Assembly (NCBI GenBank): GCA_963529135.1
Contig: CAURYQ010000003.1
Location: forward strand, 19,827-83,826
Length of the DNA stretch: 64,000 bases
Reading direction: 5' to 3'
From: an uncultured Pseudomonas sp.
GTDB taxonomy: Bacteria; Pseudomonadota; Gammaproteobacteria; Pseudomonadales; Pseudomonadaceae
The notes under the pieces are model-generated. The model was not told where the DNA came from. It did not search any database and saw only the letters and a program-made list of their open reading frames with translations. Below, one piece after another: positions 41,637 to 62,498 of the stretch. How positions within the stretch are numbered: the stretch's first letter is position 1; each line of letters opens with the position of its first letter. The position numbers and the translations under genes are program-made.

Positions 41637-42479
41637 ATGCGACCAGCGAATGAAATCAAAGATGGGGCAAAATTGCTGTCCCTCGCCCAAGGCCTGAGGT
41701 CGCTGCTGGTCCCGTCGCCAGATGTTCTAGCAGACACGGTCAAAGAGTTGTACCCGCTGGTCAACCTCTCAGACAAGGTCTTGCCATTGAAGTCGTACTT
41801 CAACATGGTTCAGGACATCCAGAGGACCAAGCATACCCATGCTGCCATGCGCGCCGATGGCGAAGCATTCAGCCGCGATGCCGTACAGCAGGCGGTGCTG
41901 CGCAAGTTGTGTACCGAAGATATTTTTATGGTGGCGTGTTCTTTTCTCGAGGTCGAAATTGCCAAGCAAGGCTCTGTTTACTACCTGAGTGGTGAATCCC
42001 CCGATTTCAAGGAAACCAAGAAAAATCGCAACCCGCTCGACCTCGCAGACGAGGTGGTTCTAAAGAACCTGTCCAGTGGCCTGGCGCGTCCTGATACAGA
42101 TCGTGGGGCAGTCGAGCGAGGGCAGATTGACAGCGGTTTCAACCACTTGGTCAGGCTGAATCAGTTGCACAATCTGATGCTTGAGTCAGTTCGCCTCATG
42201 AAGGCTGACGAACGACTGACAAAAGTGGATATTCGAAAGAAGTTCCACATTTCACATACCGACTACGAGCGCATGATGTCGATGGCGCGGCGCTCTGGGT
42301 TGATTTCGTTCCGCAATCGCAAGAAAGATCCGTCCAATGCCTATACCTTGCGTAACGACAACCATGAGCGGGTGTCTGAGCATGCGAAGCACTTTGGCCA
42401 TACGCCACAGAAAATGCTCAACAAGATTCTCGATGATTTCTTCGGGATGCTTGAAAAACGCAAGAAACACGAGGGATGA
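41637..42479 (+). CDS. hypothetical protein, possible winged-helix/RHH DNA-binding protein
   Basis: 280-aa ORF with lower GC than its neighbours. The segment KVDIRKKFHISHTDYERMMSMARRSGLISF looks HTH-like, and the basic C-terminus TPQKMLNKILDDFF looks RHH-like. Confidence 0.5.
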   Translation: MRPANEIKDGAKLLSLAQGLRSLLVPSPDVLADTVKELYPLVNLSDKVLPLKSYFNMVQDIQRTKHTHAAMRADGEAFSRDAVQQAVLRKLCTEDIFMVACSFLEVEIAKQGSVYYLSGESPDFKETKKNRNPLDLADEVVLKNLSSGLARPDTDRGAVERGQIDSGFNHLVRLNQLHNLMLESVRLMKADERLTKVDIRKKFHISHTDYERMMSMARRSGLISFRNRKKDPSNAYTLRNDNHERVSEHAKHFGHTPQKMLNKILDDFFGMLEKRKKHEG

Positions 42480-43057
42480 TGCCAATGGCAAATGAAGGCC
42501 ATCAGGACAGAAGAGGCGGCGTTGCACCGAGCGATCACGCGCGCGTGGCTCGGGCTGCCAGGCAGTTGGTTGGCTACGCCAACCTGTTGCGATGGGCTGC
42601 CAACTTTCAGCGCGAAGAACTACAGCGCCATCCCGAGCATGCGCAGGTCATGCTCCTCTCACCCATGCAAAGTGGGCGTTTTAGCTTTGCCGTAGAAAGC
42701 GAAACGCTCTATGTAGGTGTACAGCCCTTCGAGGCTGCGTGGGCTGCACTCATACCTTTCAGTGGGGCCACTGTGTCTGACCGCCTCTACTTGATGGCTG
42801 ATGGGGTGAGCTTCATGGATTCCCACATGCCGCCTCTGTCTCTTGGGCTGTTCGTAGACGAGGTTAGCAAGCGCACGTCCATGGCTGAAGCGAAATTCGT
42901 ACAGTTCATACAGGTCACGGTGACTGAGGGTTACGTGGCCACTGTAGGTGATGCTTGCGGCGACCCGATTCCCATGCGGCAGGGAGAGGTCATAACCCAA
43001 TTGCATGAAACCCGCCAGGCAAAAGCCAAGCAGCAGGACATGGGGCGCTTTTTCTAA
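42476..43057 (+). CDS. hypothetical protein (193 aa)
   Basis: ORF overlapping the previous stop (ATGATG). No motif recognised. Confidence 0.5.
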   Translation: MMPMANEGHQDRRGGVAPSDHARVARAARQLVGYANLLRWAANFQREELQRHPEHAQVMLLSPMQSGRFSFAVESETLYVGVQPFEAAWAALIPFSGATVSDRLYLMADGVSFMDSHMPPLSLGLFVDEVSKRTSMAEAKFVQFIQVTVTEGYVATVGDACGDPIPMRQGEVITQLHETRQAKAKQQDMGRFF

Positions 43058-43094
43058 GTTTGCCCAATCCGACTTCCAACGTAAGGATGCGCGC

Positions 43095-43943
43095 ATGATC
43101 AAATGCAAGCTCATTCTGCCAGTGCTGGCCGCGGTGGCCATGGCAGGTTGTGTAACCACGGAGCAAATGCCTGACGGCACTACCAAAATTCGCTTCTCAG
43201 ACGAAGCGGTCAGCTCGCTGACCTCAATGATGCCGACAGGCGTCGTCAATGGGATGGCGGGTGGTGCCGGAACTGGAGGGCTGGATCTCATCCCCACCAT
43301 GAATCATGACACAGGTGAGTTTCTGTATCTTGGCGGCAGGTTCGATTACGAATGCACAGCCGCGTTACTCTACAGCGCCAAATCAGGTGCGCCGCTCAAT
43401 GCAACCATCAATAACACATGCAGGCAGCAGTATCTGATCAGGCAACAAGAAAACAAACTGGCCGGTAAGCCCTACGACCATGCGGCGCCGGCCTTTAGCG
43501 GCGGCAGTGCTGATCAGGCTTACTGGGCTTCGCTGTCGGGTCGGCTAATCAGCCAGCTAGCGGCGCAAGATCAATTCAAAACGCGGTTCGCCAGCATTCC
43601 CCGTTATGACAACACCGGCAAACTATTCATTACCGTAGGGTTCTTGGGCAGAGGCAAAGGTGACGGTTATTCGCTGGTGACCAACCCTCAACGTACACCC
43701 GTTGCCTTCAGTGACCCGGCAGCCGAAGCACAAGTACGTTCCAGGGCATCCAGGCTAAAAACGGATCTTGGTGAATCGACTCGATGCGACGTAGTACTGG
43801 CTACCAAACGAGCTATAGACAAGGGGCCCAAGCCGGCAGGGATCAACGCATCAGATTACGCACGGTATGAAGTGCAATTCACAGTTGCTTCGATGCGTTG
43901 CAAGAACAAGCTCTATGAGCTCAAAGGCTCATCCACTCAATAA
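43095..43943 (+). CDS. hypothetical lipoprotein (282 aa)
   Basis: AAGGA RBS. Lipobox VAMAGC after MIKCKLILPVLAA. Confidence 0.62.
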   Translation: MIKCKLILPVLAAVAMAGCVTTEQMPDGTTKIRFSDEAVSSLTSMMPTGVVNGMAGGAGTGGLDLIPTMNHDTGEFLYLGGRFDYECTAALLYSAKSGAPLNATINNTCRQQYLIRQQENKLAGKPYDHAAPAFSGGSADQAYWASLSGRLISQLAAQDQFKTRFASIPRYDNTGKLFITVGFLGRGKGDGYSLVTNPQRTPVAFSDPAAEAQVRSRASRLKTDLGESTRCDVVLATKRAIDKGPKPAGINASDYARYEVQFTVASMRCKNKLYELKGSSTQ

Positions 43944-45731: not shown

Positions 45732-48700
45732 ATGGCCCAGATGCCGTTTTCTCCATGCAGCGATGCAAGCAATTGCACCGACCAATCGGTCCACATGCTT
45801 GGAAGGATTTTCGGGCCTGTCATCGACTCGCTGGTCAAAGGGATTGACCCCAACACCGTCGATGCAGGGAATAACATCCTTGCGACCATGTTCAGTTTCT
45901 TCAATAGCGGCATCCTTATCATCGGTTCGCTGATCGTCTCCTACGTGGCGGTCATGGGCGTGACCAATACGGCGAACGATGGTGAGGCCATGGGCAGGAG
46001 CTGGTCGTCCCTGTGGACCCCTGTTCGGATCGTCGTGGGTGGGGCCGTGTTGTTGCCAACCACGAGCGGCTTTTCCTTCATTCAGCTGATTGTGCTGATG
46101 TTTTCGCTGTGGGGCGTCGGGTTTGCCAATGGCACCTACAAGGCTGGGATGGCCATGGGCATATTGTCTCCTGACGGTTTGGTCGCAGGCGTTAATGCAC
46201 CCGGTAATTTCTACGGGCTGAGGGATTTCGCCCGGCAGTACGCGAGCGCAGCGTACTGCGCAAGAGCCGCCACGTACGTATACAGCGGGGCTAATGTAAC
46301 GCCCGTGTCTACCGGTGGTGCCCCCGTGCCTGACAAGACGATGGTGGTCGACGGCCGAAGGGAGCAGACGTTTTTCCTGAAAGATCGGAATGAAGCGAGC
46401 AACCTGGCCGGCGGCTCTGCTATCTGTGGCACCGTCAAACTCTCATCCTACTCGCCGCAACCAGCCGAAGAAGCGATACCGCAGGCGCTTGAGCAGCTGC
46501 GCGCTACTGTGCAAGGCAAAAAGGTGGAGATGGCGCTTCTACTCATGGCGGACATCAGAACCTGGGTTGGGAGCTGGCCATTCACGGTGAATGATCCCGG
46601 TTGGGAAAATGTTGACTCCAATCGCCTCAACGAGATCGTCAAGGCGCGGGAAGCTCAGTTGGCTTCGCAGCTGGCCGCCGAGGTCACCAACCAGCAGGGT
46701 GGAGTCGAAAATGGCCTTGAGGCCTTCATAAAGACACTGACCGACGACGGCTGGGCTGCCGCAGGGGGCTGGTTCCAGCGAGTAGGGATGGTTCGCAGTC
46801 AAATCGCGGGTGTGCTAGCCGATCCTGTAGGCTCGGTCGGCGCTCCCTCGTTAGGGGGGCTGCCCGCTGACGCGCGCGCCTCACTGTTGACCAACAGTGT
46901 CACTACTGTTGCTGAAGCGATCAATGCCAAGGCTGAGGAACGTACAAGCAGTACGCAATCGAGAGCCACCAAGGCCGAGGACATTGCCAGCCTGATTCCC
47001 AAGGACCCAAAGAGCGATATCAACCTCAGCTCGTTGCGTACGGACATGGACGCCAAGATGTCCTCATTCGTCAACGGGGTGATGCTAAACGTGGTGGAAA
47101 TCGCTACTGGAGCGGGCAGTAACGGCCAGACCCCGCTTTGCGGGACGGCGGGGCAGATGGGGGGATCGCTTAACCGCATGAAATGCGTGGGCGACTACCT
47201 GACCGTGGCCCGGGCAGGCATTCTAGTAGCGGATGTGGCCATCAAGACCGCAGGTACTGCAATACGAGTAATTGCCGGTACGCTGTCGTCGGTCAAAGGT
47301 TTGGGTAATGGGCTTGATCTGGACAAGATCGTCACACCCTTGTGGGACTGGGTACTGGAGGTGCCGGTCAAACAGTTGGCGCTCATGGCGACCTACATGG
47401 AGCCGTTGGCTTTCTATTTCGGGGTCTTCCTGCCGAGCCTGCCTTATACCCTGTTCATGATCGTATTCGTCGGCTGGGTACTTGCCGTGTTGCAGTCGAT
47501 CATCGCTGCCCCGTTATGGGCAGTAATGCACATGACGCCTGACCGTACCTTCGTAGGCTCGCAGACTCAGGGCTACTTGCTACTGCTGTCTCTGTTCGCA
47601 CGGCCGGCCCTTGCCATCCTTGGCCTATTCGCTGCTGTTCTGGTATCCGACCCGGTGATCGACTACATCGCCAAAGGGTTCTTCGCAATGCGTGGGGCTG
47701 TTGTCACGTCGTCCGGCAACGTAGGAGCTATCTCGGATTTCCTGACGTTTGCCTGGTGGTTCATGGTCTTCGGCTTGACGCTGCTACCGGTGCTTTACAT
47801 GACCTTCGGCTTGCCGCAGACGCTACCCGATACAGTGCTTACCTGGATAGGTGGTGGCCTGCAGAGCATGGGTGAAACCAGTGCCGTAGGTGACATGCGC
47901 GGTGGCATGGCCCGCGTTGGCTCAAGCGTGCAGGGCTCCAGCACCGGTATGCGCTTGGGAGGTGGTAATGCACAAGGCAAGCTCAGTGGGCCCAATGGCG
48001 GGCCGCCAGATGGTCCACAGGGCGGTGGCCCGGGTGGCGGCGGCGGAGGTATCGGCGGTGCTGGGTCCAGTGGTGGCGGACGTCCAGCGCTTCTCAATGC
48101 CAACAACCAGGGCGTGGGTGGAGATGGTCAGGATTCGGGCAGTGGCGGCGGTGGGGCCGCCGGACAGGATGCGGCACAGGCCAACCGTACCTTTGGTGAG
48201 AAGGTGTCAGATGCTGCCGGCGTTGGGCTGGGACGAGCCATTACCGGCACTGCCGGTGCTACGGGCCGGGCCATGCGTGGCGCCGGCGGTGCTGCCTTGT
48301 CAGCCGGTCGCGCGGGAATCGAGTCATTCCGCAGTCCAGATGGTGGCTCCTCCGCAGCCCGTGTTCGCAGCGGACTCAAGGCAGGGGCATTGGCTGCGGG
48401 TGCTGGATTGGCTGGAGCAGCGAGCCGGGCCGGCGCCGATTACAAACAAGCCTTCTCAACCGCAGGTGCAGAAGGAAAGGCCGCGTTCAACGAAGGCAGC
48501 GACGCACGGATCAAGGCTTATAAAGAGTCGCTTGCAGGCGGTTCGGCACCTGCCGGTAGCGAAGCGGGTGGTGAACCCGTTGGAGGTGATACCGGGCGGT
48601 CAGGCACGGACGTGGCGGGCCAGGGCTTCGAGCAATCAGCCAGCCCAGCCGGTTCGGCACCTGCCGGTAGCGAAATGGATGGTGAGCCCGCTGGGATTGA

Positions 48701-49010
48701 TGCCGGGCGTTCAGGCATGGGCGGGGCGGGTCAGGGCTTCGAGCAATCAGCCAGCCCAGTCGGCTCGGCGCAGGCAGGCAGTGGATCTTCCGTGCCGGGC
48801 AGCACCACCTCGGGCGTTGGGGGCGCAGGCCAAGCGTTCAGCGAGGCGTCAAGCCCTGCGGGTGCCGCGCCCGGCAGCAGTGCTGATACATCTACGGGTA
48901 GTGATGAACGTGCTGGCGGTGGTCAAAACAGCGCGAGTCGCCCAGCGGCACGCACAGGTGATCCCTATGCAACCGACCGTTCGACGGTAGGTAATCAGGA
49001 CGATAAATGA
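45732..49010 (+). CDS. dotA: DotA/TraY-family polytopic membrane protein with a long Gly/Ser/Ala-rich repetitive C-terminal extension
   Basis: The N-terminal block LGRIFGPVIDSL...NILATMFSFFNSGILIIGSLIVSYVAVMGVTNTANDGEAMGRSWSSLWTPVRIVVGGAVLLPT matches the DotA signature region. Multiple TM helices occur around residues 560-700. The tail from about residue 740 is low complexity. Confidence 0.85.
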   Translation: MAQMPFSPCSDASNCTDQSVHMLGRIFGPVIDSLVKGIDPNTVDAGNNILATMFSFFNSGILIIGSLIVSYVAVMGVTNTANDGEAMGRSWSSLWTPVRIVVGGAVLLPTTSGFSFIQLIVLMFSLWGVGFANGTYKAGMAMGILSPDGLVAGVNAPGNFYGLRDFARQYASAAYCARAATYVYSGANVTPVSTGGAPVPDKTMVVDGRREQTFFLKDRNEASNLAGGSAICGTVKLSSYSPQPAEEAIPQALEQLRATVQGKKVEMALLLMADIRTWVGSWPFTVNDPGWENVDSNRLNEIVKAREAQLASQLAAEVTNQQGGVENGLEAFIKTLTDDGWAAAGGWFQRVGMVRSQIAGVLADPVGSVGAPSLGGLPADARASLLTNSVTTVAEAINAKAEERTSSTQSRATKAEDIASLIPKDPKSDINLSSLRTDMDAKMSSFVNGVMLNVVEIATGAGSNGQTPLCGTAGQMGGSLNRMKCVGDYLTVARAGILVADVAIKTAGTAIRVIAGTLSSVKGLGNGLDLDKIVTPLWDWVLEVPVKQLALMATYMEPLAFYFGVFLPSLPYTLFMIVFVGWVLAVLQSIIAAPLWAVMHMTPDRTFVGSQTQGYLLLLSLFARPALAILGLFAAVLVSDPVIDYIAKGFFAMRGAVVTSSGNVGAISDFLTFAWWFMVFGLTLLPVLYMTFGLPQTLPDTVLTWIGGGLQSMGETSAVGDMRGGMARVGSSVQGSSTGMRLGGGNAQGKLSGPNGGPPDGPQGGGPGGGGGGIGGAGSSGGGRPALLNANNQGVGGDGQDSGSGGGGAAGQDAAQANRTFGEKVSDAAGVGLGRAITGTAGATGRAMRGAGGAALSAGRAGIESFRSPDGGSSAARVRSGLKAGALAAGAGLAGAASRAGADYKQAFSTAGAEGKAAFNEGSDARIKAYKESLAGGSAPAGSEAGGEPVGGDTGRSGTDVAGQGFEQSASPAGSAPAGSEMDGEPAGIDAGRSGMGGAGQGFEQSASPVGSAQAGSGSSVPGSTTSGVGGAGQAFSEASSPAGAAPGSSADTSTGSDERAGGGQNSASRPAARTGDPYATDRSTVGNQDDK
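48540..48785 (+). repeat. 111-bp (37-aa) in-frame tandem repeat, 2 full copies plus a partial third, in the dotA tail
   Basis: Copies start at 48540, 48651 and 48762. Peptide unit: GSAPAGSE(A/M)(G/D)GEP(V/A)G(G/I)D(T/A)GRSG(T/M)(D/G)(V/G)AGQGFEQSASP(A/V). Confidence 0.85.
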
Positions 49011-49136
49011 GGCTCGCCAGCTTACGCCGTCTCGGGCTGTCGGAATTTTCCCAACACCTAACGGTCTTGGACGATGGCATACAGAGGTTTATGCCATATG
49101 TCATTCGGCTCCTTTCGCTTTCAGCGGAGATTACCC

Positions 49137-49523
49137 ATGGTTGACGACCCACTTGAAGACCAGCTAAGGCGATTGCTGACTGGCCTGGCTGACCAGGCTA
49201 TCGTCCGTGGCGAGCCCTTCATCTACGATGGTGGCGAGCTGTATGCCGATGATGTCGCAGACATAACGCTAACCTCCGTGCTATGCCTGGCGCAGGCACT
49301 TTCGCGACGGACCGGTTTGGGTGGTTTTGGCTACCGGTTCCACGTGGCGGCGCCGGCCAATCCGATCTTCCCCATTCATATGAGCGCCCCGCAAGAGCCG
49401 CCTGACTTTTTCCAAATCGCACCGTTCGTAGCTGCGGTTTTCCATGCAGACGTGCTTGATGCCCGGCACGACCTAACCGTGCTCTACCGTGCGGCCGAGC
49501 TGGCGATACACCAGCAGGCCTGA
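49137..49523 (+). CDS. hypothetical small protein (128 aa)
   Basis: GGAGA RBS 7 nt before the ATG at 49137. No motif recognised. Confidence 0.5.
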   Translation: MVDDPLEDQLRRLLTGLADQAIVRGEPFIYDGGELYADDVADITLTSVLCLAQALSRRTGLGGFGYRFHVAAPANPIFPIHMSAPQEPPDFFQIAPFVAAVFHADVLDARHDLTVLYRAAELAIHQQA

Positions 49524-49614
49524 GCCGGGTAAGTGCCATGGCTCAAAGTGGGTGAAGCGGACAAGGTTCACATCCAGTGCCGCGACACCCTTGATGTCCG
49601 ACCAGGAGTTGCCC

Positions 49615-50064
49615 ATGCAAGACGACTACTACACAGACGAACAGCCCGCCGGTGCCGAAGACCTGCCGCCAGGAGTGCTGCCGCCCATGCCGGGATACAC
49701 CCACGCTGATCTACTGGCAATTGCCGAGGAACGGGTGCTTGCGTTGCTCGAAGCACAGTCTATTGATCCCGGTTTGATTCGTGAGACCTTGATCGCGCTG
49801 GCCACCCAGCTGTACGCGGCGCTTGAAAGTGAGGCCTTGGAGTACAAGATATCCACATGCCATCAACAGCCCTGCAATGAGGCGCTCCATGCCAGCAACA
49901 TCACCAATCTGGCTGAGAAGGCAGGCGCCCTAGCGGTCAACGCCGCTGCAGACTCACTGGATGGATCACCGATCCTGCGCCTAGGCAAACCTTTCTACGT
50001 GAGTTTCATAGATCAGGCCGGTAATGCGCTGCTTGAGCACGTTCTCAAACTGCGCAAAATTTGA
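49615..50064 (+). CDS. hypothetical small acidic protein (149 aa)
   Basis: AGGAG RBS 6 nt before the ATG at 49615. Highly acidic N-terminus. Directly precedes the lipase-like gene. Confidence 0.55.
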   Translation: MQDDYYTDEQPAGAEDLPPGVLPPMPGYTHADLLAIAEERVLALLEAQSIDPGLIRETLIALATQLYAALESEALEYKISTCHQQPCNEALHASNITNLAEKAGALAVNAAADSLDGSPILRLGKPFYVSFIDQAGNALLEHVLKLRKI

Positions 50065-50090
50065 TCGCAAGCGGATCATAGGGACATGAC

Positions 50091-51869
50091 ATGAGCGGTT
50101 CATTGCACATCACCATCTATCTCGACGGCACGCGAAACAACAAGGACAATGACGGGCCGCAGGGTACCCACACCAACGTAGCGCGGCTCTACGATATTGA
50201 CGCCGCCAGGGGCACGAATCTCGCCCGCAATTCCAGCCATGCACCCGTGCAATACGATTGGCAGGCGTGCGACGGCTTGGCCGAGAAAGTTTATCTGGAC
50301 GGTGTCGGTAGCCAGCGTCGTAACAAGCCCGCCAGTGCATTCGAGTGCGCAACAGGGGCAGGTGGCCGAAGTCGTATAGAGCAGGCCTATGCAGTGCTTG
50401 TAGCGTTTCACAACAAATACCCGGACCGCACGGTAGATGTGAACTTGGTAGGGTTCAGTCGCGGCGCCGCCCAGGCGCGCGCGCTGTCCAACGTGTTCAT
50501 CGAACGGGGCGTGCCCAAGCTCGATAGCCAGCGTCGACCCACCGGTGATTATCTGGTGCAACCCGGTCAAGCGACGGTAAACAAGCTGGCCATCTTCGAT
50601 ACGGTGGCGTCATACGGTAACCCGCTTACCGATTTTCATCTGAACAAAAACCTTGAAATCCACCGAAACGTCGCTTCTACCACGCACTTGATTGCGATGA
50701 ATGAATACCGTGCGACTTTTCCGTTGACCAGTGCGCTGCGCAGTGATGACAACACGCGAATCGAGGAAATCAAGTTTGCCGGAGCACATTCGCAGGTAGG
50801 CGGCGGTTATAGAAACGATGTACTGGCTGCAGGCCCGCTTGCGCTCATGCATCAACGCCTCCAGGCGGCCAGCGTAGCGCTGGGACCTTTGTTACCTGCG
50901 GATGCATTGCGCGTAGAACAATACAATGCGCTGATCAGTGACCCGGTGCGGTTGCAGCAGGCGTTGATCGACTCTCGATTATCCGAGGGGAACGAGGCGT
51001 TCGAACTTGATGATGAAGGTGTCTACAAGGCTGTCGACAATAGCCCGTTCGCGCTCGAGCGCGGCACGTTCAGGCGCTGGGACAAACAAAAGCATCCTTT
51101 TGATCATGTCGTATCTGGACGCAAGGTGATTTATGAGAATGATCAATCGCTGTCCAAACCGCTGACACACATACGCAACGAAGCGCTGGCGCGATGGGCC
51201 AGGTCAGGCCAGGATGGACCTCTGGTTGAGCCCGTGGGTGTGGCGAAGTCCGAAGAAACACTCAAGCGGGGTGCCGATTTCGAAAGCAAGCTGGCAGCGC
51301 TAGATGCCAGCTGTCAGGCCCAGGTCGAGCAGCTCTCGGAACTGCTGACGCGCTCCCGGCCAGACGTCCCTTATCTACAGCAACTGGGACTGGCAGCTGT
51401 GCCAGTGTCATGCGCTGCACGCTACGCCGTAGTGAGGATCAACCCTGAAGGCTCCGCCGCATTCACTGACTTGGGCTTTGAGTACGAACTGGGCCGTATT
51501 CTCGAAGATGCCGCAGACGGTGCCAGAGCTACCGCGCCTCTCAAGATGGACCAGGCATTGCCATTGCACGACACCAATGGGAATGTTGTAGGCAGCCTGC
51601 AGGCCATGCATGAAGTCCCGCCGCGTGAGGATCAAGGGGTAATGATAGCGCTGGACATGCAAGGGGTTTCGATAGGGGCTCAGGCAGATTTTCTGCACGA
51701 TGGGTTTCAGCAGGCAGCCGCTTGGGTTGCGCATCAGGAGCCGGGCCTGCATAGCAATGCATGGATAATACCGGGGAGGGACGGTCAGCCTGTTGGGCAG
51801 GCGTACATCGAAAAAGCTCCAGAGCATGACGTGCAACCCATTGTCGCTTGGGACGGCCCACAACCGTAA
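50091..51869 (+). CDS. DUF2235 / Tle1-like alpha/beta-hydrolase (putative phospholipase effector) with an unknown 350-aa C-terminal region
   Basis: ITIYLDGTRNN (FDGT.N motif), nucleophile elbow GFSRGA (GxSxG) and FAGAHSQVGGGY (HSDVGGGY motif), all in the N-terminal 240 aa. Confidence 0.8.
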   Translation: MSGSLHITIYLDGTRNNKDNDGPQGTHTNVARLYDIDAARGTNLARNSSHAPVQYDWQACDGLAEKVYLDGVGSQRRNKPASAFECATGAGGRSRIEQAYAVLVAFHNKYPDRTVDVNLVGFSRGAAQARALSNVFIERGVPKLDSQRRPTGDYLVQPGQATVNKLAIFDTVASYGNPLTDFHLNKNLEIHRNVASTTHLIAMNEYRATFPLTSALRSDDNTRIEEIKFAGAHSQVGGGYRNDVLAAGPLALMHQRLQAASVALGPLLPADALRVEQYNALISDPVRLQQALIDSRLSEGNEAFELDDEGVYKAVDNSPFALERGTFRRWDKQKHPFDHVVSGRKVIYENDQSLSKPLTHIRNEALARWARSGQDGPLVEPVGVAKSEETLKRGADFESKLAALDASCQAQVEQLSELLTRSRPDVPYLQQLGLAAVPVSCAARYAVVRINPEGSAAFTDLGFEYELGRILEDAADGARATAPLKMDQALPLHDTNGNVVGSLQAMHEVPPREDQGVMIALDMQGVSIGAQADFLHDGFQQAAAWVAHQEPGLHSNAWIIPGRDGQPVGQAYIEKAPEHDVQPIVAWDGPQP

Positions 51870-51989
51870 AGGTCCTGACCAAGCCGGTATAGCCTTTGAA
51901 GCCAGTTGGCTAGATAGGATTCGAAGCATCACAGGCTTACAATACGAGCACGACGATCACTGGATCGGGCAATTTGTCAGGGTTACGAC

Positions 51990-52424
51990 ATGAAAATCGA
52001 AAAGTATCAGCCAGGTACCTTTATCGAACTGGACGATATGGCGGGCGGCCGACGTGTGGCGATGGTGTGCAAAGATGGCGTGACTTATTGGGACTTGCTG
52101 GATGCAACAAGCTGCACGCCGTTATCCATCCATCCTTCTCTCAACCCCGTTGCGCTCGGTACCCTGGTGGAGTTCGCCCGGCGGCACGAACAAGAGAAAG
52201 CTTTGCAAACCTTGGTCGAAGTCATGCGCATCGCTTGTGATGAGCGTCTGAACGATGACCCGCTGTTCGTCATGCGAGCGCTTTGGTTTATAGCACGCAA
52301 GGCCAATGAGGAAGGGCTTGAGTTGGATGCCGTGACCCTTGGTTGGGCCTTCGAGCAAGCCCAGATTCAGGGCCAGGCTGCCAACGGTATCCACCAGTTC
52401 GCAGAGCGATACTGTTCAATGTAG
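51990..52424 (+). CDS. hypothetical cytoplasmic protein (144 aa) downstream of the lipase-like gene
   Basis: Clean ORF with no signal peptide and no motif recognised. Confidence 0.55.
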   Translation: MKIEKYQPGTFIELDDMAGGRRVAMVCKDGVTYWDLLDATSCTPLSIHPSLNPVALGTLVEFARRHEQEKALQTLVEVMRIACDERLNDDPLFVMRALWFIARKANEEGLELDAVTLGWAFEQAQIQGQAANGIHQFAERYCSM

Positions 52425-52540: not shown

Positions 52541-53074
52541 TTACTGACCCACGCGTTTGACGGCTTGCGCAGCATCCCGGGCAGTGCGTTTTATGGCCTT
52601 GACCACGGTACGTTTGTCATAGGTACAGCTGATGTATGTACTACCTGCCTCTGCCCGCAATGACAAGTCATGGTTACCGATTTCTTTTGTGTAGTGGCCC
52701 ACGTCGTCCTGAGGGATGTCAGCCAGTTTGGCAACGGTCTCGATGCTCTCGCCTGAGAAGGCGCCGGTGAACTCGTTGAAGTCACCTTCACCATCGGTAG
52801 CCGAATGCACCGAGAGTTGCGTAATAGGGCGACCAAAAACATCAATGGGATTAGGTACGGTGTACTCGGCATCCGACAGGTCCGACGCCTGAACGATAAC
52901 CTTGCCATTGGCCGCTCTGACCAGCTCGGCAAATTTCTCCGGCGTGATGGGCCGTTTGCAGGTCAGTACCTGGGCGATGCGTGCATTGGCTTCGGCAGGG
53001 TCGAGGGCAGCAGCCTGAGCGTTGATGCAGGCAAAGGCGGTAATCATAGGCAGTGCTAGACAAATAAATTTCAT
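52541..53074 (-). CDS. hypothetical secreted/periplasmic protein (177 aa)
   Basis: Signal peptide MKFICLALPMITAFACINAQA. No motif recognised. Confidence 0.62.
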   Translation of the reverse strand: MKFICLALPMITAFACINAQAAALDPAEANARIAQVLTCKRPITPEKFAELVRAANGKVIVQASDLSDAEYTVPNPIDVFGRPITQLSVHSATDGEGDFNEFTGAFSGESIETVAKLADIPQDDVGHYTKEIGNHDLSLRAEAGSTYISCTYDKRTVVKAIKRTARDAAQAVKRVGQ

Positions 53075-55186: not shown

Positions 55187-55927
55187 ATGGATCACAACTG
55201 GCAGGCACCCAAAGGCAACATGAAGCTCGATGGAGGCTACAACGGCTCCATGCAGCAAGCGATCGCCAACTTGGAAATCGGCCGTGATCAAGGTCGGCGG
55301 CAGGGGCAAAGTGAAGGTTTCGAGCAAGGGCGTGAGTACGGCTATGCCGAAGGTTGGAATGCCGGCATAGCCAGCGCCAACGAAAAACTGCACCCCCTGC
55401 GCGAGAACTTTCGGCTGTATTTCGACGAGGCAATAGAGCTGCGCGCAAAGCTGGTGCATCAGCAGAAGGTCATTGATGTGATGATCGAGCAATTGGCCAA
55501 GGCCGCGCAGGTCGAGACAGCTCGAGCTGAGCAGAGCCAGCACAATACGAGCGCTGAGGAAGTGACCCGTTTGCGTAACTCTGAGAGTCTTCAGGGGCGC
55601 ATCATCGCGGCCATGGAGATGCAGTACAAAGCCACGTATGCGCAGTCATGCCAAAAGACGGAACAGTATAAACGTAGCCTTATATTCACCCATACTGCTC
55701 AAGTGCTTTTGCGAGAGCTAGTTGCCCCTGATACGCCTGAAGCCTCTCACATCAGGGCCCGGTTCGCCGAAATCTATCAGGAGCAGGTGGCCCAGAGCAT
55801 GGAGCTGGGCGACGTCCAAGCGCCGCCAGAGCAGGACGATTTGTTTCGCAAGCATCTGCCCGAAACCCTGAGTTTCATCCAGCACATGCTGTGCCCCGAT
55901 GCGCCGGTGACTAGGCCGCGTTCGTAA
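55187..55927 (+). CDS. hypothetical coiled-coil protein (246 aa)
   Basis: GGAGG RBS. Gly/Gln/Glu-rich N-terminus followed by a long heptad-like region. Confidence 0.52.
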   Translation: MDHNWQAPKGNMKLDGGYNGSMQQAIANLEIGRDQGRRQGQSEGFEQGREYGYAEGWNAGIASANEKLHPLRENFRLYFDEAIELRAKLVHQQKVIDVMIEQLAKAAQVETARAEQSQHNTSAEEVTRLRNSESLQGRIIAAMEMQYKATYAQSCQKTEQYKRSLIFTHTAQVLLRELVAPDTPEASHIRARFAEIYQEQVAQSMELGDVQAPPEQDDLFRKHLPETLSFIQHMLCPDAPVTRPRS

Positions 55928-56935: not shown

Positions 56936-58237
56936 TCAGGGCGCGAAGTCGTTGTCACGCGATGAGCCTGGCAGGCTGTTGCGAACAAGGTCGACGATGC
57001 CCTTGACCACTTCCTTGAGGCGTTCGGCAATGCGTTCCATGACTTCCCTGAGCCGTTCGATATGCGACTGGCCCTCACCGGCAAAGGCCGGAGTGTTGCC
57101 TGCGTCCTGGTGCATCTTGGCGCTGGAGGTTTCCAGCCGATCCTTGAGCTTCTCGTAGTGAGGGTTGCCCTCGGTTTCAGGGTTCAATAGCTCTTCCTGA
57201 GCGCGGCCATACTGCTTTGCCCACCCTGTAAGCGCCTTGTCCATGACTTTCTTGTTGCCTTGCGCCTCAGGTGACTGCGCAACGGCATTGACGAACGCCT
57301 GATGCAGGTCGCTGTATTCTCCGTCCGGCTTCATCTTTTCGATCACTTGCGGGACGGTAAGGCCTGCCTCATTGGCACGGTTTTCGATTTCCCGATGTAC
57401 CTCGGGCATTTTGTCGGCCGCCCAGAATGCTTCATGGGCCTTGTGATAGTTGTTGCCCGCTTTCTCGACTTGGTCAACGCGATACTCCGAGAGCCGGGGC
57501 AGTACCGGCACCCGACCCTCCAATGCATCCGGTGTTGCCATGACAGGCGCTGTATCGCCTTTTTCGGTGCCCGAACCGCTTAGCGCGCCGGCCAGCGCGC
57601 TGGCTCCCTTGCCCAAGCCCTGCATGGCTGCGCCGGTTAGCGACGCAACACCCTCTGCCAATTGCGCAGTCCCTTTGAGCAGAGTCTCAGCACCATTCTC
57701 GGGGCGCTGAGGCAAGGCTATCGGTTTGGCTTCGTCACCCTTCAGCGAGTCGTTCATGCGTTGGATATCGCCGGGATCAAGTTTTGTTTGTTCTGGCTCT
57801 TTGGGTGACACCACGCTCATGATTGCCTGCAGTAACTCTGGGGCGAGGGAAGTGGCGGGCATGGCGGACGACTGAGCAGCTGGCAAGACTGAAGCCGATG
57901 TGGCAAACGGCAGGGTTTCAAGCGTTGCAGCGTCGATTGAGCGCGCGCGCCATGTTACCGCCGAGCCGACGCTTTCACTGGTTAGCATCATCGGCTCGCC
58001 CGCCTTGACCGCCGTTTCCTGCATCGCCTGCTCCAAACCAGGGGCCCATAGCGTCTGCTCACCCGCATCGGTCTTCAAGATGACGTAATAATTGCCCTGA
58101 TGCGTGGAGTCGTCTTCAGAAGGCGCTGCACCGTGATGGACCAAAATGCCCGCATAGCGATGGTCGGCCTGGGCTTGTACCCTTGCAGCCGAATCAGCGA
58201 TGGATGAAGCAGGCTTGGCGGTGTCTTTGGGTTCCAT
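56936..58237 (-). CDS. hypothetical protein (433 aa); the N-terminal approx. 100 aa resemble a domain seen in plasmid/ICE polyvalent proteins (KfrB/LPD7-like, tentative)
   Basis: YAGILVHHGAAPSEDDSTHQGNYYVILKTDAGEQTLWAPGLEQAM pattern. The rest is Ala-rich and helical. Confidence 0.55.
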   Translation of the reverse strand: MEPKDTAKPASSIADSAARVQAQADHRYAGILVHHGAAPSEDDSTHQGNYYVILKTDAGEQTLWAPGLEQAMQETAVKAGEPMMLTSESVGSAVTWRARSIDAATLETLPFATSASVLPAAQSSAMPATSLAPELLQAIMSVVSPKEPEQTKLDPGDIQRMNDSLKGDEAKPIALPQRPENGAETLLKGTAQLAEGVASLTGAAMQGLGKGASALAGALSGSGTEKGDTAPVMATPDALEGRVPVLPRLSEYRVDQVEKAGNNYHKAHEAFWAADKMPEVHREIENRANEAGLTVPQVIEKMKPDGEYSDLHQAFVNAVAQSPEAQGNKKVMDKALTGWAKQYGRAQEELLNPETEGNPHYEKLKDRLETSSAKMHQDAGNTPAFAGEGQSHIERLREVMERIAERLKEVVKGIVDLVRNSLPGSSRDNDFAP

Positions 58238-59411: not shown

Positions 59412-60593
59412 TCACCTGACGCTCCGTTGTACGTTCTGTTTGGCTGCATCTTCAGCCGCTTCGCTGGTGCGTGCCTGTGCCCCACTGCTGGTCACTTGCA
59501 TCGAAACCAGTGAGGCCAATTGGGCCTCCATGTTTTCGTACTGGCGGTACTGTTTTTCCAGAATCGCCAAGTCCAGAGCCTTGATTTTCAGCAGCTCGAC
59601 CAGGGCCCCGCGTTCGTTCTGGGCAGCCATTACGCGTGCCCAGTTGTTGTACTCACTCGTATTTCCCGAGTAGCGCTTGACCTCTGTGCGAAAGTGCTGG
59701 GCGAGGGGCAGGTCAATGCCCGTTTCCTTGCCCTCGACGCCTGAATAATCCAGCTGGATGGCCTTCAAAGTCGCGATGGCCGGCGATACCAGTGCATCTT
59801 TGCGGGCCTTCGACAGCGCATAGTCAGCGGTGGCTGCCGACTGCCCGGCCGCTGCAGGCACCGGGCCATCGGGCAGCCCTGCGACGTTGTTCACGAAGCT
59901 GACTTTGGCGCTGTATAAAGGCTCATCCTCCATGGCAGGTTCGAACAGCGTGGCCACGGTAAGATCGGCCCCCGGCATGGAGCCTACACCCTTGCACAGA
60001 CCAGAGTCGGCTTGGTCTTGAGTGCAGAATGACTGGCGAGCCTTGAGCAGAGCCGCTTGTGTAGCAATAGGATCGGCGTAGGTGCCGGGTGCTGCGGCCA
60101 CTTCGGAGCGAACCCGCTGGCGCACCTCGGTTGCCATGTCTGCATCCCGGTTACTGATTACCTGGCGCGCGGCATAGACCGTACAGGGCGAATAACCTTG
60201 TCCAAATTCACCGCCATAATCGAAGCGCGCCTGCTTGACCCGCTCCGTCTGAGCCAGAACGTTAAGAGCGTTCGCTGTCTGCAGGGCGGAGTTGCGACCG
60301 GCCTCTGCCATGGTATTGGCTGACAACGCCTTCTGCTTGGTCAAGACGGCTATGGCCGACGTCAGGCGTTGGCTTTCGGTCTCGAGCAGCGCCGACAACG
60401 ACGCGTCCACTGTCGACATGGCAGCATTGAGCGTCTGCGTGGCGATGGTGAAGGCGGGCGCGACTACTGTCTCTTGATACTGGGGCGGGCAGTAAGCCCA
60501 TGCCAACGTTGACGTGAGTGCCAACGAAATGCCAAATGACACCTTCCACTTGCGCGACTCGCGTGACGGGTCGAAATCCTTTTTCATGTCCAC
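59412..60593 (-). CDS. Secreted protein, paralogue 1 of a triplicated family (possibly IcmX/TraW-like, tentative)
   Basis: Shares with 60595-61731 the blocks SA(I/V)A(V/I)(L/A)TKQ(K/E)ALSAN, FCTQ..AD..LC, LFEP, K.RKDAL, the Q.ERG.LVE-like block and QY.Q...L..LASLV. Confidence 0.68.
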   Translation of the reverse strand: MDMKKDFDPSRESRKWKVSFGISLALTSTLAWAYCPPQYQETVVAPAFTIATQTLNAAMSTVDASLSALLETESQRLTSAIAVLTKQKALSANTMAEAGRNSALQTANALNVLAQTERVKQARFDYGGEFGQGYSPCTVYAARQVISNRDADMATEVRQRVRSEVAAAPGTYADPIATQAALLKARQSFCTQDQADSGLCKGVGSMPGADLTVATLFEPAMEDEPLYSAKVSFVNNVAGLPDGPVPAAAGQSAATADYALSKARKDALVSPAIATLKAIQLDYSGVEGKETGIDLPLAQHFRTEVKRYSGNTSEYNNWARVMAAQNERGALVELLKIKALDLAILEKQYRQYENMEAQLASLVSMQVTSSGAQARTSEAAEDAAKQNVQRSVR

Positions 60594-60594
60594 C

Positions 60595-61731
60595 TTACTT
60601 CACCTGCTGCTTGGCGGTTTCTGAAAGGACCTTTTGGTAGCGCATTTCCAAAGGCCCCGCCATGTTGTCCGAGGAGGCAACCACCAGGGAGGCCAGGTTA
60701 GCCAGCAGACGCTGGTTCTGCTCATACTGCTGATGGTGTATCCAGACTTCCAGTCCGCCCATCTTGGCGGCCTCTACCAGCAACCCACGTTGGGTCTGAC
60801 GAGCGAGGTTGCCCGACCACTGCTGTGATTCCTTGCCCCCGAAATACTGATTAACGCGCAGACGCAGAACTTCATTCGGAGACTTGCCACCGAACTCCTT
60901 AGTGCGAGTGTTTGCCGCGTCGATCATCGCCAAGCTGTAGGTGGGTACCGACAGCAGCGCATCCTTGCGATTCTTCTGTGCCAAATAGGCTTCGCCGGCT
61001 GGTGTGCCACCGGCATTCTTGTCCAATGCCTGGTCAGGCGGGCCGATCACGTGCTGTATGTAGGCGGTACGGGCGTCAGTGGTCAGCGAATCGGCATCTG
61101 CTGGCTCGAACAGCAGCGCGGCGTTGGTGTCGCCGCCTGGTAGCGGACTGAGCGTACACAGGTTGGCATCGGCCTCCGCCTGTGTGCAGAACTTTTCACG
61201 ATGATTATTCAACCGTTGTTGCATGGCGTCAGGCGCCGATTTGACCAGCCGCCCTGGCGAGGCGTCCAGCGTGCCGACCGCCTGTTTGGCTCTGGCGGCC
61301 ATGGTCGTGAAGGCCAGATCCATGGATTTGTTCTTGGCCACGGTGCCGCACGGATCGAAGCCTTGGCCAGTGCCTGCGTTGAAATCCAGCCACGTCTTGG
61401 CCAGTGCAGAGTTTTCCTGCTGCGCCCGAATGGCGTTGACCAGCTGTTCGGCGGTCTGCCGGTTATTGTCCGCGACCACGTTGGCAGACAGTGCTTCTTG
61501 CTTGGTGGCGATAGCCACTGCCGAGATGATCTGCTCGAACTTGTAGGTCATCTGGCCACCGAAGCTGGTGCCGAATGCCCCGATGTTGGCCGAGACCGAA
61601 GCGGTCAACATGGCCAGTTGCGCCTCTGTCCACGCCTCTGCCGGACCGAACCCGTACAACGCACCGTAGCAAACGCTGGACATCAAGGTCGACCCTGCGA
61701 CGATGCCTGCTATCTTGAGTCGAAAATTCAT
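60595..61731 (-). CDS. Secreted protein, paralogue 2 of the triplicated family
   Basis: Signal-like N-terminus. Same conserved blocks as paralogue 1. 1-nt intergenic gaps on both sides. Confidence 0.68.
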   Translation of the reverse strand: MNFRLKIAGIVAGSTLMSSVCYGALYGFGPAEAWTEAQLAMLTASVSANIGAFGTSFGGQMTYKFEQIISAVAIATKQEALSANVVADNNRQTAEQLVNAIRAQQENSALAKTWLDFNAGTGQGFDPCGTVAKNKSMDLAFTTMAARAKQAVGTLDASPGRLVKSAPDAMQQRLNNHREKFCTQAEADANLCTLSPLPGGDTNAALLFEPADADSLTTDARTAYIQHVIGPPDQALDKNAGGTPAGEAYLAQKNRKDALLSVPTYSLAMIDAANTRTKEFGGKSPNEVLRLRVNQYFGGKESQQWSGNLARQTQRGLLVEAAKMGGLEVWIHHQQYEQNQRLLANLASLVVASSDNMAGPLEMRYQKVLSETAKQQVK

Positions 61732-61732
61732 A

Positions 61733-62488
61733 TCACTGCCCTGTGAGCATGGGTACGCGACGGTCAGTCACTTGCCCAACGAGAGAGTTGGCTGCCATGG
61801 CGCTGCTGGCCGAAGCGGCCAACTGCTGCGCCTGCGCGGCGTTGCAGGCGGCCGTTTTGCAATCGATATGCGCCTCGGCTCGCTGGTCGGTGATCATGGC
61901 CGCGTAAGCCAGTGCCGCCGTTTCGCCTTCAGGTGCGAGCGTCCGCTCGCTGAAAGGACCGGCGTAGTCGGCATCCCAGCCCTGCATTCCGTTGGCGTTG
62001 AGTGCACACATGCCCTGCCTGGCCTCGGAAACCGTGCAGTAAGTTGTACGGTGCATGGACAAGGTTTGTTCGTCGGCACTGGCGCGCGAGCCTACGCGCT
62101 GAGATGCGTATGAAGCCATCAGATGCGCGGCGTCCTTGTCGCGCTGAGACTGGGCTTCGACGAACAGTTTGCCTTGTTCCTGTGCGGTGCATTTGATCGT
62201 GACAGGTTGTCCTACGGCCGGATCGAACGATGAGACTGCCTTGACGGCGCGGTTCGACATATCGATGGCACCCACCGCATTGGCCAACTGTTTCTTGGCG
62301 TCGGCATCCATCTGCGAAACCACATTGGCCGACAGCGCTGTCTGCTTGACCGAGATCGCCCACGCACTCATTTCCGTTTGCATGGTGCTGATGAATGTAA
62401 GTACCGAGGCCCAGGACAAAGCCTGTGCGGGCAATGCCACTGCGGCCGTGCTGAGTCCGATAGCCAGAGCTGCTGCAATTTTCTTCAT
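61733..62488 (-). CDS. Secreted protein, shorter paralogue 3 of the family (251 aa)
   Basis: Signal peptide MKKIAAALAIGLSTAAVALPAQA. Retains VKQTALSANVV and YCTVSEARQGMC blocks. Confidence 0.65.
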   Translation of the reverse strand: MKKIAAALAIGLSTAAVALPAQALSWASVLTFISTMQTEMSAWAISVKQTALSANVVSQMDADAKKQLANAVGAIDMSNRAVKAVSSFDPAVGQPVTIKCTAQEQGKLFVEAQSQRDKDAAHLMASYASQRVGSRASADEQTLSMHRTTYCTVSEARQGMCALNANGMQGWDADYAGPFSERTLAPEGETAALAYAAMITDQRAEAHIDCKTAACNAAQAQQLAASASSAMAANSLVGQVTDRRVPMLTGQ

Positions 62489-62498
62489 ACCATGGACC

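Follow-up and report, generated by a model that had tools for sequence, protein, structure and literature searches.

What is a gene for a Tle1-like lipase doing directly behind dotA, inside the island of a secretion system of type IVB (T4BSS)? The question was raised by a 64,000-nucleotide stretch of an uncultured Pseudomonas sp. (GenBank assembly GCA_963529135.1, contig CAURYQ010000003.1), called the window below and numbered from its first nucleotide, in which an open reading frame (ORF) of 592 amino acids (aa) at 50091-51869 on the + strand encodes a DUF2235/Tle1-like hydrolase. An earlier note, made from the letters of the DNA, had described this gene, the two small ORFs before it (128 aa and a very acidic 149 aa) and the 144-aa ORF after it as a lipase toxin re-assigned to a type IVB machine, with chaperone, adaptor or immunity genes at its sides. 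All four ORFs were recovered as described (isoelectric point, pI, of the 149-aa protein 4.50), and the three small ones are referred to as sA, sB and sD in their order along the DNA.

We consider it fairly probable that sB and the lipase gene, in this order, are a two-gene immunity-effector pair and ride as cargo in the dotA operon, within an antibacterial T4BSS island of the kib type. To judge by homologues, the window belongs to the Pseudomonas putida group. For bacteria-killing T4BSSs we know of one effector-immunity pair, and of no biochemical activity for it. The kib T4BSS of Pseudomonas putida/capeferrum IsoF kills Gram-negative bacteria by contact and is the sole T4BSS shown to kill bacteria (PMC9519443); both proteins of its known pair, the immunity protein PisoF_02332 and the effector PisoF_02333, are predicted there to be cytosolic.

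The lipase and the acidic protein encoded before it

ORF calls of the lipase and its neighbours were the same in an independent assembly (99% identical). Residues 1-255 of the lipase (50091..50855, +) form a DUF2235/Tle1-like alpha/beta hydrolase domain with Ser123, Asp170 and His233 as predicted catalytic residues. The three DUF2235 motifs named in the earlier note were found where it had placed them (YLDGTRNN, aa 10-17; GFSRGA, aa 121-126; AGAHSQVGGGY, aa 230-240) and are joined by FDTVAS at aa 169-174, an agreement far above chance expectation; a hidden Markov model (HMM) search with Pfam PF09994 (T6SS_Tle1-like_cat) gave 95.3 bits (E=5.4e-27) at a curated gathering score of 27 bits. The PDB sequences of the Tle1 structures 9j3f and 6sjl align with the lipase at GFSRG, FDTVA and GAHS..GGGY, and S123, D170 and H233 did not vary in an alignment of 26 homologues. 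By count, these residues correspond to residues 197, 245 and 310 of 6sjl, which we take to be its published triad, although a literature check of the numbering of Tle1 from enteroaggregative Escherichia coli did not confirm this. The lipase is read from these alignments as a Tle1-like Ser-Asp-His hydrolase, and phospholipase activity is predicted for it.

PF09994 was the sole Pfam match in the lipase at E<=0.01. Neither the Tle1-like C-terminal domain PF22137 nor XVIPCD (PF20410), the coupling-protein-binding domain of effectors of Xanthomonas-type type IV secretion systems (T4SSs), was detected in these scans; the same models do detect PF22137 in P0085, a T6SS-type (type VI secretion system) relative, and XVIPCD in P0074, a more distant relative from Luteibacter that consists of DUF2235 and XVIPCD. 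NCBIfam, PADLOC and PHROGs gave no match to the lipase save PHROG 9027 (unknown function, E=0.003) on the first of the C-terminal modules described below, and no paralogue of the lipase was found by BLASTP among 683 window ORFs.

The 350 residues behind the catalytic domain, in which the earlier note had recognised no motif, turned out to be structured: aa 256-440 are conserved across the clade, and aa 441-592 appear in the structure model as a tandem module. The middle region (aa 256-440; 50856..51410, +) is clade-specific, common to the lipases of kib islands and of Trb-type clusters, and mostly helical in the model, with a long helix at aa 386-422; it has conserved columns at D294, S295, R296, Q333, F337, R344, S422 and P424 and ends in a conserved SRP...VPVP stretch. 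It matched no Pfam family and no PDB fold, and Foldseek with the model of aa 256-592 returned nothing significant from the PDB (best E=0.067).

The gene just upstream, sB (49615..50064, +), encodes an acidic protein of 149 aa (pI 4.50) that was modelled as six helices and is all-helical (predicted local distance difference test, pLDDT, 87.8). AGGAG stands 7 nt ahead of its ATG and its stop codon lies 26 nt short of the lipase ATG. No match to sB was obtained in Pfam, NCBIfam, PADLOC or PHROG, and a relaxed Pfam scan of the small ORFs (E<=10) was likewise empty; a Foldseek search of the PDB with its model returned nothing significant (best E=0.25), nor did the sB profile match any PDB sequence.

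The tie between the two genes emerged from a comparison of 77 loci encoding DUF2235 relatives, 19 of them close (at least 34% identity) and 58 remote. The close loci form three sets, namely kib islands (L001-L004, L014, L015), a group whose lipases end in KfrB, and outliers in Paraburkholderia, Hahella and two uncultured lineages, and all relatives above ~34% identity lie in a T4SS cluster, be it a kib T4BSS or a Trb-type type IVA system (T4ASS). sB stood directly beside the lipase gene in 17 of the 19 close loci, with T4SSs of both types and with one of the exceptions cut by a contig end, and was absent from all 58 remote loci (25-36% identity). Across seven kib islands the identity of sB tracks that of the lipase with r=0.98. 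A plasmid database yielded remote DUF2235 proteins only (26-35% identity, some fused to PAAR), and the lipase clade was not found on the known plasmids searched.

The two kinds of locus differ in the N-terminus of sB. In kib islands, stop codons stand 1-46 codons upstream of the sB start and no hydrophobic N-terminal segment is encoded, so that we read this form as cytosolic, as is predicted for the two members of the known pair. In Trb-type loci, by contrast, the frame is open far upstream and encodes a basic stretch, a ~20-residue hydrophobic segment (mean hydropathy over 12 residues 2.1-2.9) and an A-x-A-like site, as in SRLRLSSLIPLVLGACVLLPATSSALQA with KEIS-MQDN behind the predicted cleavage site. 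Textbook ATG-initiated signal peptides are present in three divergent copies (L006, L010 and L013; for example MLSRFKKMVFLFSMFLIGGVANA, followed by KE), long forms are annotated in some database entries, and at least 18 of 21 sB copies retain, immediately behind the site of predicted cleavage, the Met with which the short form begins.

In the Trb-type order (TrbE, VirB8-like, TrbG, TrbH, TrbI, TrbL, TrbM, TrbN, sB, sB, lipase-KfrB, TraX, TraG, TraF) the lipase gene is situated between trbN and traX/traG, and in Hahella the order is TrbL, TraX, sB, lipase. Immunity genes tend to duplicate, and Pseudomonas Trb-type T4ASS clusters hold arrays with up to seven sB copies: one (L006, 8700-16750) reads sB-sB-LIP-sB-sB-sB-sB-sB-LIP, and in another (L008, 6470-17140) six copies of sB accompany five lipase genes, three of them intact and two fragmentary. 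This arrangement looks like that of polymorphic toxin-immunity loci, and conjugation-like Trb systems may serve antagonism.

sB also occurs without the lipase. Pseudomonas sp. NBRC 111119 shares the left-flank genes of the window (periplasmic binding protein, FecCD, ABC ATPase and amino-acid permease, 88-96% identical), and its site is without T4BSS or lipase; the amino-acid permease gene (96% identical) is followed there by an orphan sB, which encodes 149 aa, is 70% identical to the window sB and has no signal sequence. Within this islet (L080, 8001-8932) sB lies tail-to-tail with a gene for a 66%-identical homologue of the 177-aa protein encoded in the window at 52541-53074, the lipase and sD genes being missing between the two; the 177-aa protein is the only other kib gene kept with sB, and may be another protective protein. 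The same orphan allele was found in strain S60 and four other assemblies, and NBRC 111119 and S60 both carry a Trb-type lipase elsewhere in the genome. Since a secretion chaperone is useless without its substrate and machine and an immunity gene remains useful, the orphan favours an immunity role. Arrays, exported forms and orphan copies together lead us to read sB as an immunity protein; our proposal is that it is cognate to the lipase, acts in the cytoplasm and would neutralise the lipase there. Orphan sB genes at empty island sites further suggest an ongoing arms race among root-colonising pseudomonads.

A chaperone or adaptor role of sB was set aside as the best reading on these same grounds. 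It belongs to an explanation that we regard as unlikely, in which the lipase is an anti-eukaryotic T4BSS effector aimed at amoebae, fungi or plant cells (compare the Legionella Dot/Icm phospholipases) and sB is its secretion chaperone or a cis-acting inhibitor before export. T4BSSs classically target eukaryotes, the IsoF lineage colonises roots and the lipase was dispensable for the bacterial killing measured in IsoF, while sB is small, acidic, cytoplasmic and encoded just upstream, as with many secretion chaperones. Export would not be expected of a chaperone, yet all Trb-type sB copies have signal-peptide-like extensions; neither its retention as an orphan without lipase and T4BSS nor five lipase-less copies in a row would be expected, and the all-helical sB resembles no known chaperone or adaptor structure. 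Moreover, the sole demonstrated activity of a kib T4BSS is antibacterial.

A C-terminal domain exchanged among relatives

The last part of the lipase (aa 441-592; 51411..51866, +) consists of two tandem ~70-aa beta-alpha-beta-beta modules, both modelled at pLDDT >90, with the motif ..AAF.D.G..E..RI...AA......L.DTNGN.VG.., and of an acidic tail. The tail, ...IEKAPEHDVQPIVAWDGPQP, ends in Pro (...WDGPQP); its pattern W-[DE]-x-P-[EQA]-[PL] is kept in kib-type lipases, and it is without an FxxxLxxxK motif. KfrB-ending lipases match the window lipase over aa 1-440 at 56-59% identity, and the C-terminal ~150 aa are exchanged among relatives for the kib tandem module, KfrB (PF18790) or, in P0074, XVIPCD. 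By sequence, one catalytic scaffold bears three different C-terminal domains, each paired with a different T4SS. Such a swap by the kind of T4SS fits a machine-specific delivery or docking role, and it is a reasonable inference from the swap that aa 441-592 and the acidic tail are a candidate T4BSS-specific docking or translocation domain. The suggestion of the earlier note that the C-terminal half may carry the translocation signal is upheld in so far as the last ~150 aa change with the kind of T4SS.

KfrB itself may be a docking module between substrates and coupling protein. In Paraburkholderia the gene order is TrbI, ParB, a two-KfrB protein, sB, lipase-KfrB and a TraG coupling protein that also ends in KfrB; in Paraburkholderia humisilvae (L018; 8163-9359 and 13179-15704) the two-KfrB protein has 398 aa and the KfrB match of TraG has E=9e-11. 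Our literature search on KfrB with effectors found no paper describing Trb-linked DUF2235-KfrB lipases. XVIPCD, KfrB and the tandem module, swapped on one scaffold, are candidate recognition domains for two T4SS types with undefined protein-substrate signals.

As a tentative and rather doubtful extension, sB and the lipase could be a T4SS-specific family that has moved between two unrelated machines, swapping its docking domain (KfrB or tandem module) and the compartment of sB (exported or cytosolic) on the way.

With aa 425-592 of the lipase as query, 44 representative proteins were matched in the full library (phmmer), and an HMM of the kib-type C-terminal domain scored these at E=1e-10 to 1e-25. 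Some proteins whose N-termini are unrelated share the C-terminal domain in full and end similarly in ...EP, and many carriers of the module are long mobile-element proteins, one of them with an LPD11 'polyvalent protein' domain. A profile search with the module returned 1396 proteins, mostly of 57-70 or 130-270 aa and none with a Pfam domain; sub-threshold matches of a BFVD structure search were tiny uncharacterised phage proteins. Window 51411-51866 and proteins P0146-P0301 belong to this large unannotated family, whose beta-alpha-beta-beta modules are ~65 aa long, show the motif NAAF...E(V/I)ARIL..AA.K(V/I)....LRD.NGN.VG and are found as single small proteins, as tandem pairs or at the ends of long mobile-element proteins.

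This family is also part of the case for an explanation that we hold to be quite unlikely, namely that sB and the lipase are not secreted but form a toxin-antitoxin-like addiction or defence module that stabilises T4SS islands, the proximity to dotA being incidental. Besides the C-terminal module, with its mobile-element relatives and small phage proteins, the tight two-gene layout with the inhibitor first and the presence of the pair on several kinds of mobile element speak for it, and an orphan sB could serve as an anti-addiction gene. PADLOC and NCBIfam gave no match, however, and a periplasm-directed sB implies that in Trb-type loci the lipase acts outside the producer cytoplasm. The pair always lies inside a T4SS gene block (trbN to traX/traG, or after dotA), DUF2235 relatives with XVIPCD or PAAR are secreted toxins, and the IsoF counterpart of sB tolerates transposon insertions, unlike a classical antitoxin.

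The kib-type island and the case for an accessory effector

Directly upstream of the lipase block lies dotA (45732..49010, +; DotA/TraY family, NCBIfam TIGR04346, E=1.7e-135), which is preceded by genes for DotI, DotH, DotG, a DotL-like coupling protein, DotC/TraI, DotB and DotM (Pfam/NCBIfam). The position of the lipase gene behind dotA in a T4BSS island, as given in the earlier note, was thus borne out, and so was its statement that no T6SS gene is near: Pfam scans of ORFs of at least 180 aa between 22 and 63 kb, and of selected flank and smaller ORFs, found T4BSS genes, an OmpA-like protein and an M23 peptidase but no vgrG, hcp, PAAR or DUF4123. The genes dotA, sA, sB, lipase and sD are co-oriented with successive gaps of 126, 91, 26 and 120 nt, and sA and sB have good ribosome-binding sites. 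The gaps hold no terminator-like site, three + strand terminator-like matches falling within the coding sequence of the lipase or sD, and a convergent gene bounds the block; dotA is probably the first gene of the lipase transcription unit.

In content, order and gene sizes the window matches the kib cluster (dotI-H-G ... dotO-L, trbN, dotC-B, dotM, the PisoF_02332/33 pair, dotA, lipase block, M23 block). It is syntenic with the IsoF-lineage contigs L081-L084, and synteny between dotA and the M23 peptidase gene holds for six kib islands. Order and sizes agree with the gene table of IsoF transposon insertion sequencing, and from it counterparts were assigned as PisoF_02337 (dotA), PisoF_02338 (sA, 128 aa), PisoF_02339 (sB, 149 aa), PisoF_02340 (lipase) and PisoF_02341 (sD, 144 aa); the window does not come from IsoF itself. 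The IsoF-lineage lipase cluster includes P. capeferrum, SWRI59 and Irchel s3f19, and the nearest reference genome is that of P. parafulva NBRC 16636 (lipase 68% identical). The island has a GC content of ~57% against 63-65% in the flank, the left flank consisting of housekeeping genes; the values for IsoF are 58.8% and 62.6%. We regard the island as a variant form of the antibacterial kib island described for IsoF, the strain in which contact-dependent killing has been shown (PMC9519443).

The lipase as a T4SS effector is not new, since a 2026 paper (PMC13600407) lists PisoF_02340, with its Tle1-like domain, as a T4SS effector predicted by DeepSecE. No experiment on PisoF_02340 was found in the literature, and the accessible parts of PMC9519443 and PMC13600407 give no immunity partner, domain architecture or activity for it. 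What the present analysis adds, and what was not found in the literature searched, are the proposed sB immunity family and the compartment change within it, the orphan islet, the arrays in Trb clusters and the swap at the C-terminus.

In the mechanism that we propose, sB and lipase would be co-produced, and sB would bind and block the lipase in the producer cytoplasm. The C-terminal domain and acidic tail would direct the lipase to the T4BSS coupling complex, and the T4BSS would inject it into adjacent Gram-negative cells on contact, where its Ser-Asp-His site would cleave membrane phospholipids like Tle1 phospholipases. Sister cells that receive the lipase, and strains with an orphan sB, would be protected by sB. 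As the kib form of sB has lost the signal sequence of its Trb-linked relatives, it is probably from the cytoplasmic face of the inner membrane that the lipase encounters inhibitor and substrate alike.

Several points weigh against the sB-lipase pair as an antibacterial effector and its immunity protein. The most serious comes from IsoF, where deletion of PisoF_02333 alone abolished killing of P. aureofaciens and KT2442 (PMC9519443); thus the lipase did not kill those prey under those conditions and is at best an accessory or conditional toxin. In transposon insertion sequencing (Tn-seq) of IsoF, the sB counterpart was mildly insertion-poor (0.023-0.039, as against 0.002-0.009 for PisoF_02332), several unrelated island genes have values near this, and no extra depletion of the sB counterpart was seen on solid medium. 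As the genes at 43005-43943 and 55187-55927 show the same degree of divergence across islands, divergence by itself does not identify an effector-immunity pair. The C-terminal module family sits in mobile-element-like contexts with SSB, SprT-like and AbiEii genes, and the module was found in no other ORF of the window (683 ORFs; BLASTP and three HMMs); it is therefore not a secretion tag common to kib proteins. The signal peptides of sB were judged by hydropathy, charge and motif and not by a dedicated predictor, and many Trb-type copies have no obvious start codon just ahead of the hydrophobic segment. The window was matched to IsoF locus tags by the order and sizes of genes and by lineage clusters and not by a direct IsoF alignment, and secretion, lipase activity, toxicity and sB-lipase binding are all predicted.

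The lipase is most likely an accessory effector beside an effector of the PisoF_02333 type. It may be accessory or conditionally expressed or may hit other prey, or orphan immunity in the tested prey may have weakened its effect. Of the idea of a lipase toxin re-assigned to a T4BSS, the Tle1-like domain and the relatives in T4SS clusters hold good; novelty does not, nor does a more than accessory part in IsoF.

If the sB-lipase pair is what we propose, it would be the first kib effector with a predictable mechanism, known together with its immunity partner and open to an easy point mutant, S123A. The signal-peptide form of sB in Trb clusters and the cytosolic form in kib islands would be a genetic handle on the compartment of antibacterial T4SS delivery, and the orphan sB genes bear on the biocontrol use of kib-positive strains. 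Should the more doubtful extension also hold, in which the family moved between machines, the location of sB would report the deposit site of the cargo: the prey periplasm for Trb systems, the cytoplasm of the prey for the T4BSS. Many of the Trb 'conjugation' clusters found in Pseudomonas islands would then be weapons with polymorphic toxin-immunity arrays.

The other small ORFs of the block behave differently from sB. sA (49137..49523, +; 128 aa, pI 4.67) is specific to kib islands and 74-82% identical across them, above the conservation of the lipase; it is absent from Trb-type lipase loci and had no match in Pfam, NCBIfam, PADLOC, PHROG or PDB. Its IsoF counterpart was not depleted in Tn-seq (0.10-0.11), and sA is possibly a T4BSS accessory protein. 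sD (51990..52424, +; 144 aa, pI 4.91, cytoplasmic) is also kib-specific and is 61-64% identical in all kib islands whatever the divergence of the lipase (63-64% across the seven islands compared, with r=0.44 against lipase identity); it is absent from Trb-type loci and from the orphan islet, matched nothing in NCBIfam, PADLOC, PHROGs or PDB sequences, and has an IsoF counterpart that tolerates transposon insertions. Both genes are confined to kib islands among the 19 close loci, and are best described as kib-island genes that are not demonstrable members of the sB-lipase pair. sD as the immunity gene was set aside as the best reading, having no tie to the lipase beyond kib islands. The scheme of the earlier note, which makes sD the cytoplasmic immunity protein and gives a chaperone or adaptor role to the ORFs upstream, we hold to be very unlikely: the three small ORFs do all encode acidic, cytoplasmic proteins in the orientation of the lipase gene, and sA and sD are conserved in every kib island, but these two are never found with the lipase outside kib islands nor in the orphan islet, do not follow its divergence and are freely hit by transposons in IsoF, and every comparative hallmark of an immunity gene belongs to sB.

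Further genes were noted around the block. Convergent to it, the 177-aa ORF (52541..53074, -) begins with a signal peptide-like sequence, MKFICLALPMITAFACINAQA, and had no family match in Pfam, PADLOC or PHROGs; it is possibly a periplasmic protective protein. In the public assembly that is 99% identical, a 45-aa ORF (49007-49144) overlapping the end of dotA and the start of sA has been called as a gene. DotA is Gly/Ala/Ser-rich, of low complexity and variable in length over its C-terminal third (window 47800-49010), which includes a 111-bp tandem repeat (x2.1) at 48535-48769; in IsoF-type islands the protein has 1105 or 1195 aa, as against 1092 aa in the window.

The counterpart of the published immunity protein PisoF_02332 (41637-42479, +) has 280 aa and 32.0 kDa and ends in FFGMLEKRK, a match to FxxxLxxxK; mass and motif agree with PMC9519443. 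The counterpart of the effector PisoF_02333 (42476-43057, +) has 193 aa. Across islands the former is 94-96% and the latter 63-69% identical, and PDB sequence searches with both gave no match. The PisoF_02332 counterpart is thus highly conserved although other genes of the same islands are 53-77% identical; it is basic (pI 9.4), its aa 195-240 resemble a winged helix-turn-helix by eye, and a weak MarR-family match was obtained (E=0.03). An immunity protein is not usually conserved to this degree, which would suit a regulator. Island-deleted IsoF complemented with PisoF_02332 alone was still killed, for which the authors blame lack of expression (PMC9519443); a regulator role might explain why PisoF_02332 alone gave no protection, and a missing second immunity gene is an alternative account.

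To the right, a 433-aa ORF (56936-58237, -), the counterpart of PisoF_02351, was as insertion-poor in Tn-seq (0.008-0.010) as the published immunity gene and has a weak MobP1 relaxase match (E=0.0016). The M23 peptidase gene beside it and ORFs at 59412-62659 are likewise insertion-poor. The latter comprise two adjoining paralogues of 393 and 378 aa (59412-61731, -; ~33% identical by tblastn cross-hits) and a third, weakly related ORF (61733-62659), and are 79-92% conserved across islands.

Relation to known secreted toxin systems

Tli1 immunity proteins are periplasmic. The T6SS Tle1-Tli1 systems (P. aeruginosa PA3290/PA3291; enteroaggregative E. coli, PDB 6sjl) share with the window the catalytic family, the aligned Ser, Asp and His and a small dedicated inhibitor; sB is, however, unrelated to Tli1, all-helical and in the window without signal peptide. 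With no vgrG, hcp, PAAR or DUF4123 near, no PF22137, no periplasmic Tli and a T4BSS as the machine, the pair is not a T6SS Tle1-Tli1 system.

The effectors and immunity proteins of the X-T4SS (X-Tfes/X-Tfi; PMC6536674, PMC8262851) likewise include antibacterial lipases with an N-terminal toxin, a C-terminal machine-specific domain and an adjacent immunity gene, and DUF2235-XVIPCD proteins are among them. They depend on a VirB/D4-type T4ASS and XVIPCD, whereas the window machine is Dot/Icm-like and its lipase lacks PF20410, so it is not an X-Tfe; it would work in the manner of the T6SS and X-T4SS toxins, with a T4BSS as machine and an unrelated inhibitor in the cytosol. For lipase effectors of the Xanthomonas T4SS, immunity proteins in two isoforms, periplasmic and cytosolic, have been proposed (PMC6536674), and the Met kept behind the cleavage site of sB recalls them. 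TfcA of Stenotrophomonas maltophilia, a class-3 lipase with a lipoprotein immunity protein, acts in the periplasm (PMC8262851). Legionella Dot/Icm substrates are marked by a C-terminal translocation signal (E-block or FxxxLxxxK) or by dependence on IcmSW; the lipase tail is acidic and has no FxxxLxxxK, and DeepSecE scored the IsoF counterpart as an effector.

Trb-type (IncP-like) T4ASS clusters of Pseudomonas, Paraburkholderia and Hahella have the same sB family immediately upstream of a related lipase, and differ in the KfrB C-terminus, the signal-peptide-like extension of sB, the multi-copy arrays and the T4ASS machine. The kib pair PisoF_02332/PisoF_02333 lies in the same island with the immunity gene first, is T4BSS-associated and has two proteins predicted to be cytosolic. 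Its proteins are unrelated to sB and the lipase, the PisoF_02332 counterpart is 94-96% conserved as against sB and lipase diverging to ~50%, and genetic support is on the PisoF side, sB and lipase being known from sequence alone.

The closest system is the lipase locus of the IsoF kib island itself, where PisoF_02340 lies in the same order of dotA, a 128-139-aa ORF, a 149-150-aa ORF, a ~600-aa DUF2235 protein and a 144-145-aa ORF. IsoF-type islands have a 417-aa DUF6685 gene after sD, which is absent from the window, and compared with this lineage the window lipase is ~55-56% and the window sB ~54% identical.

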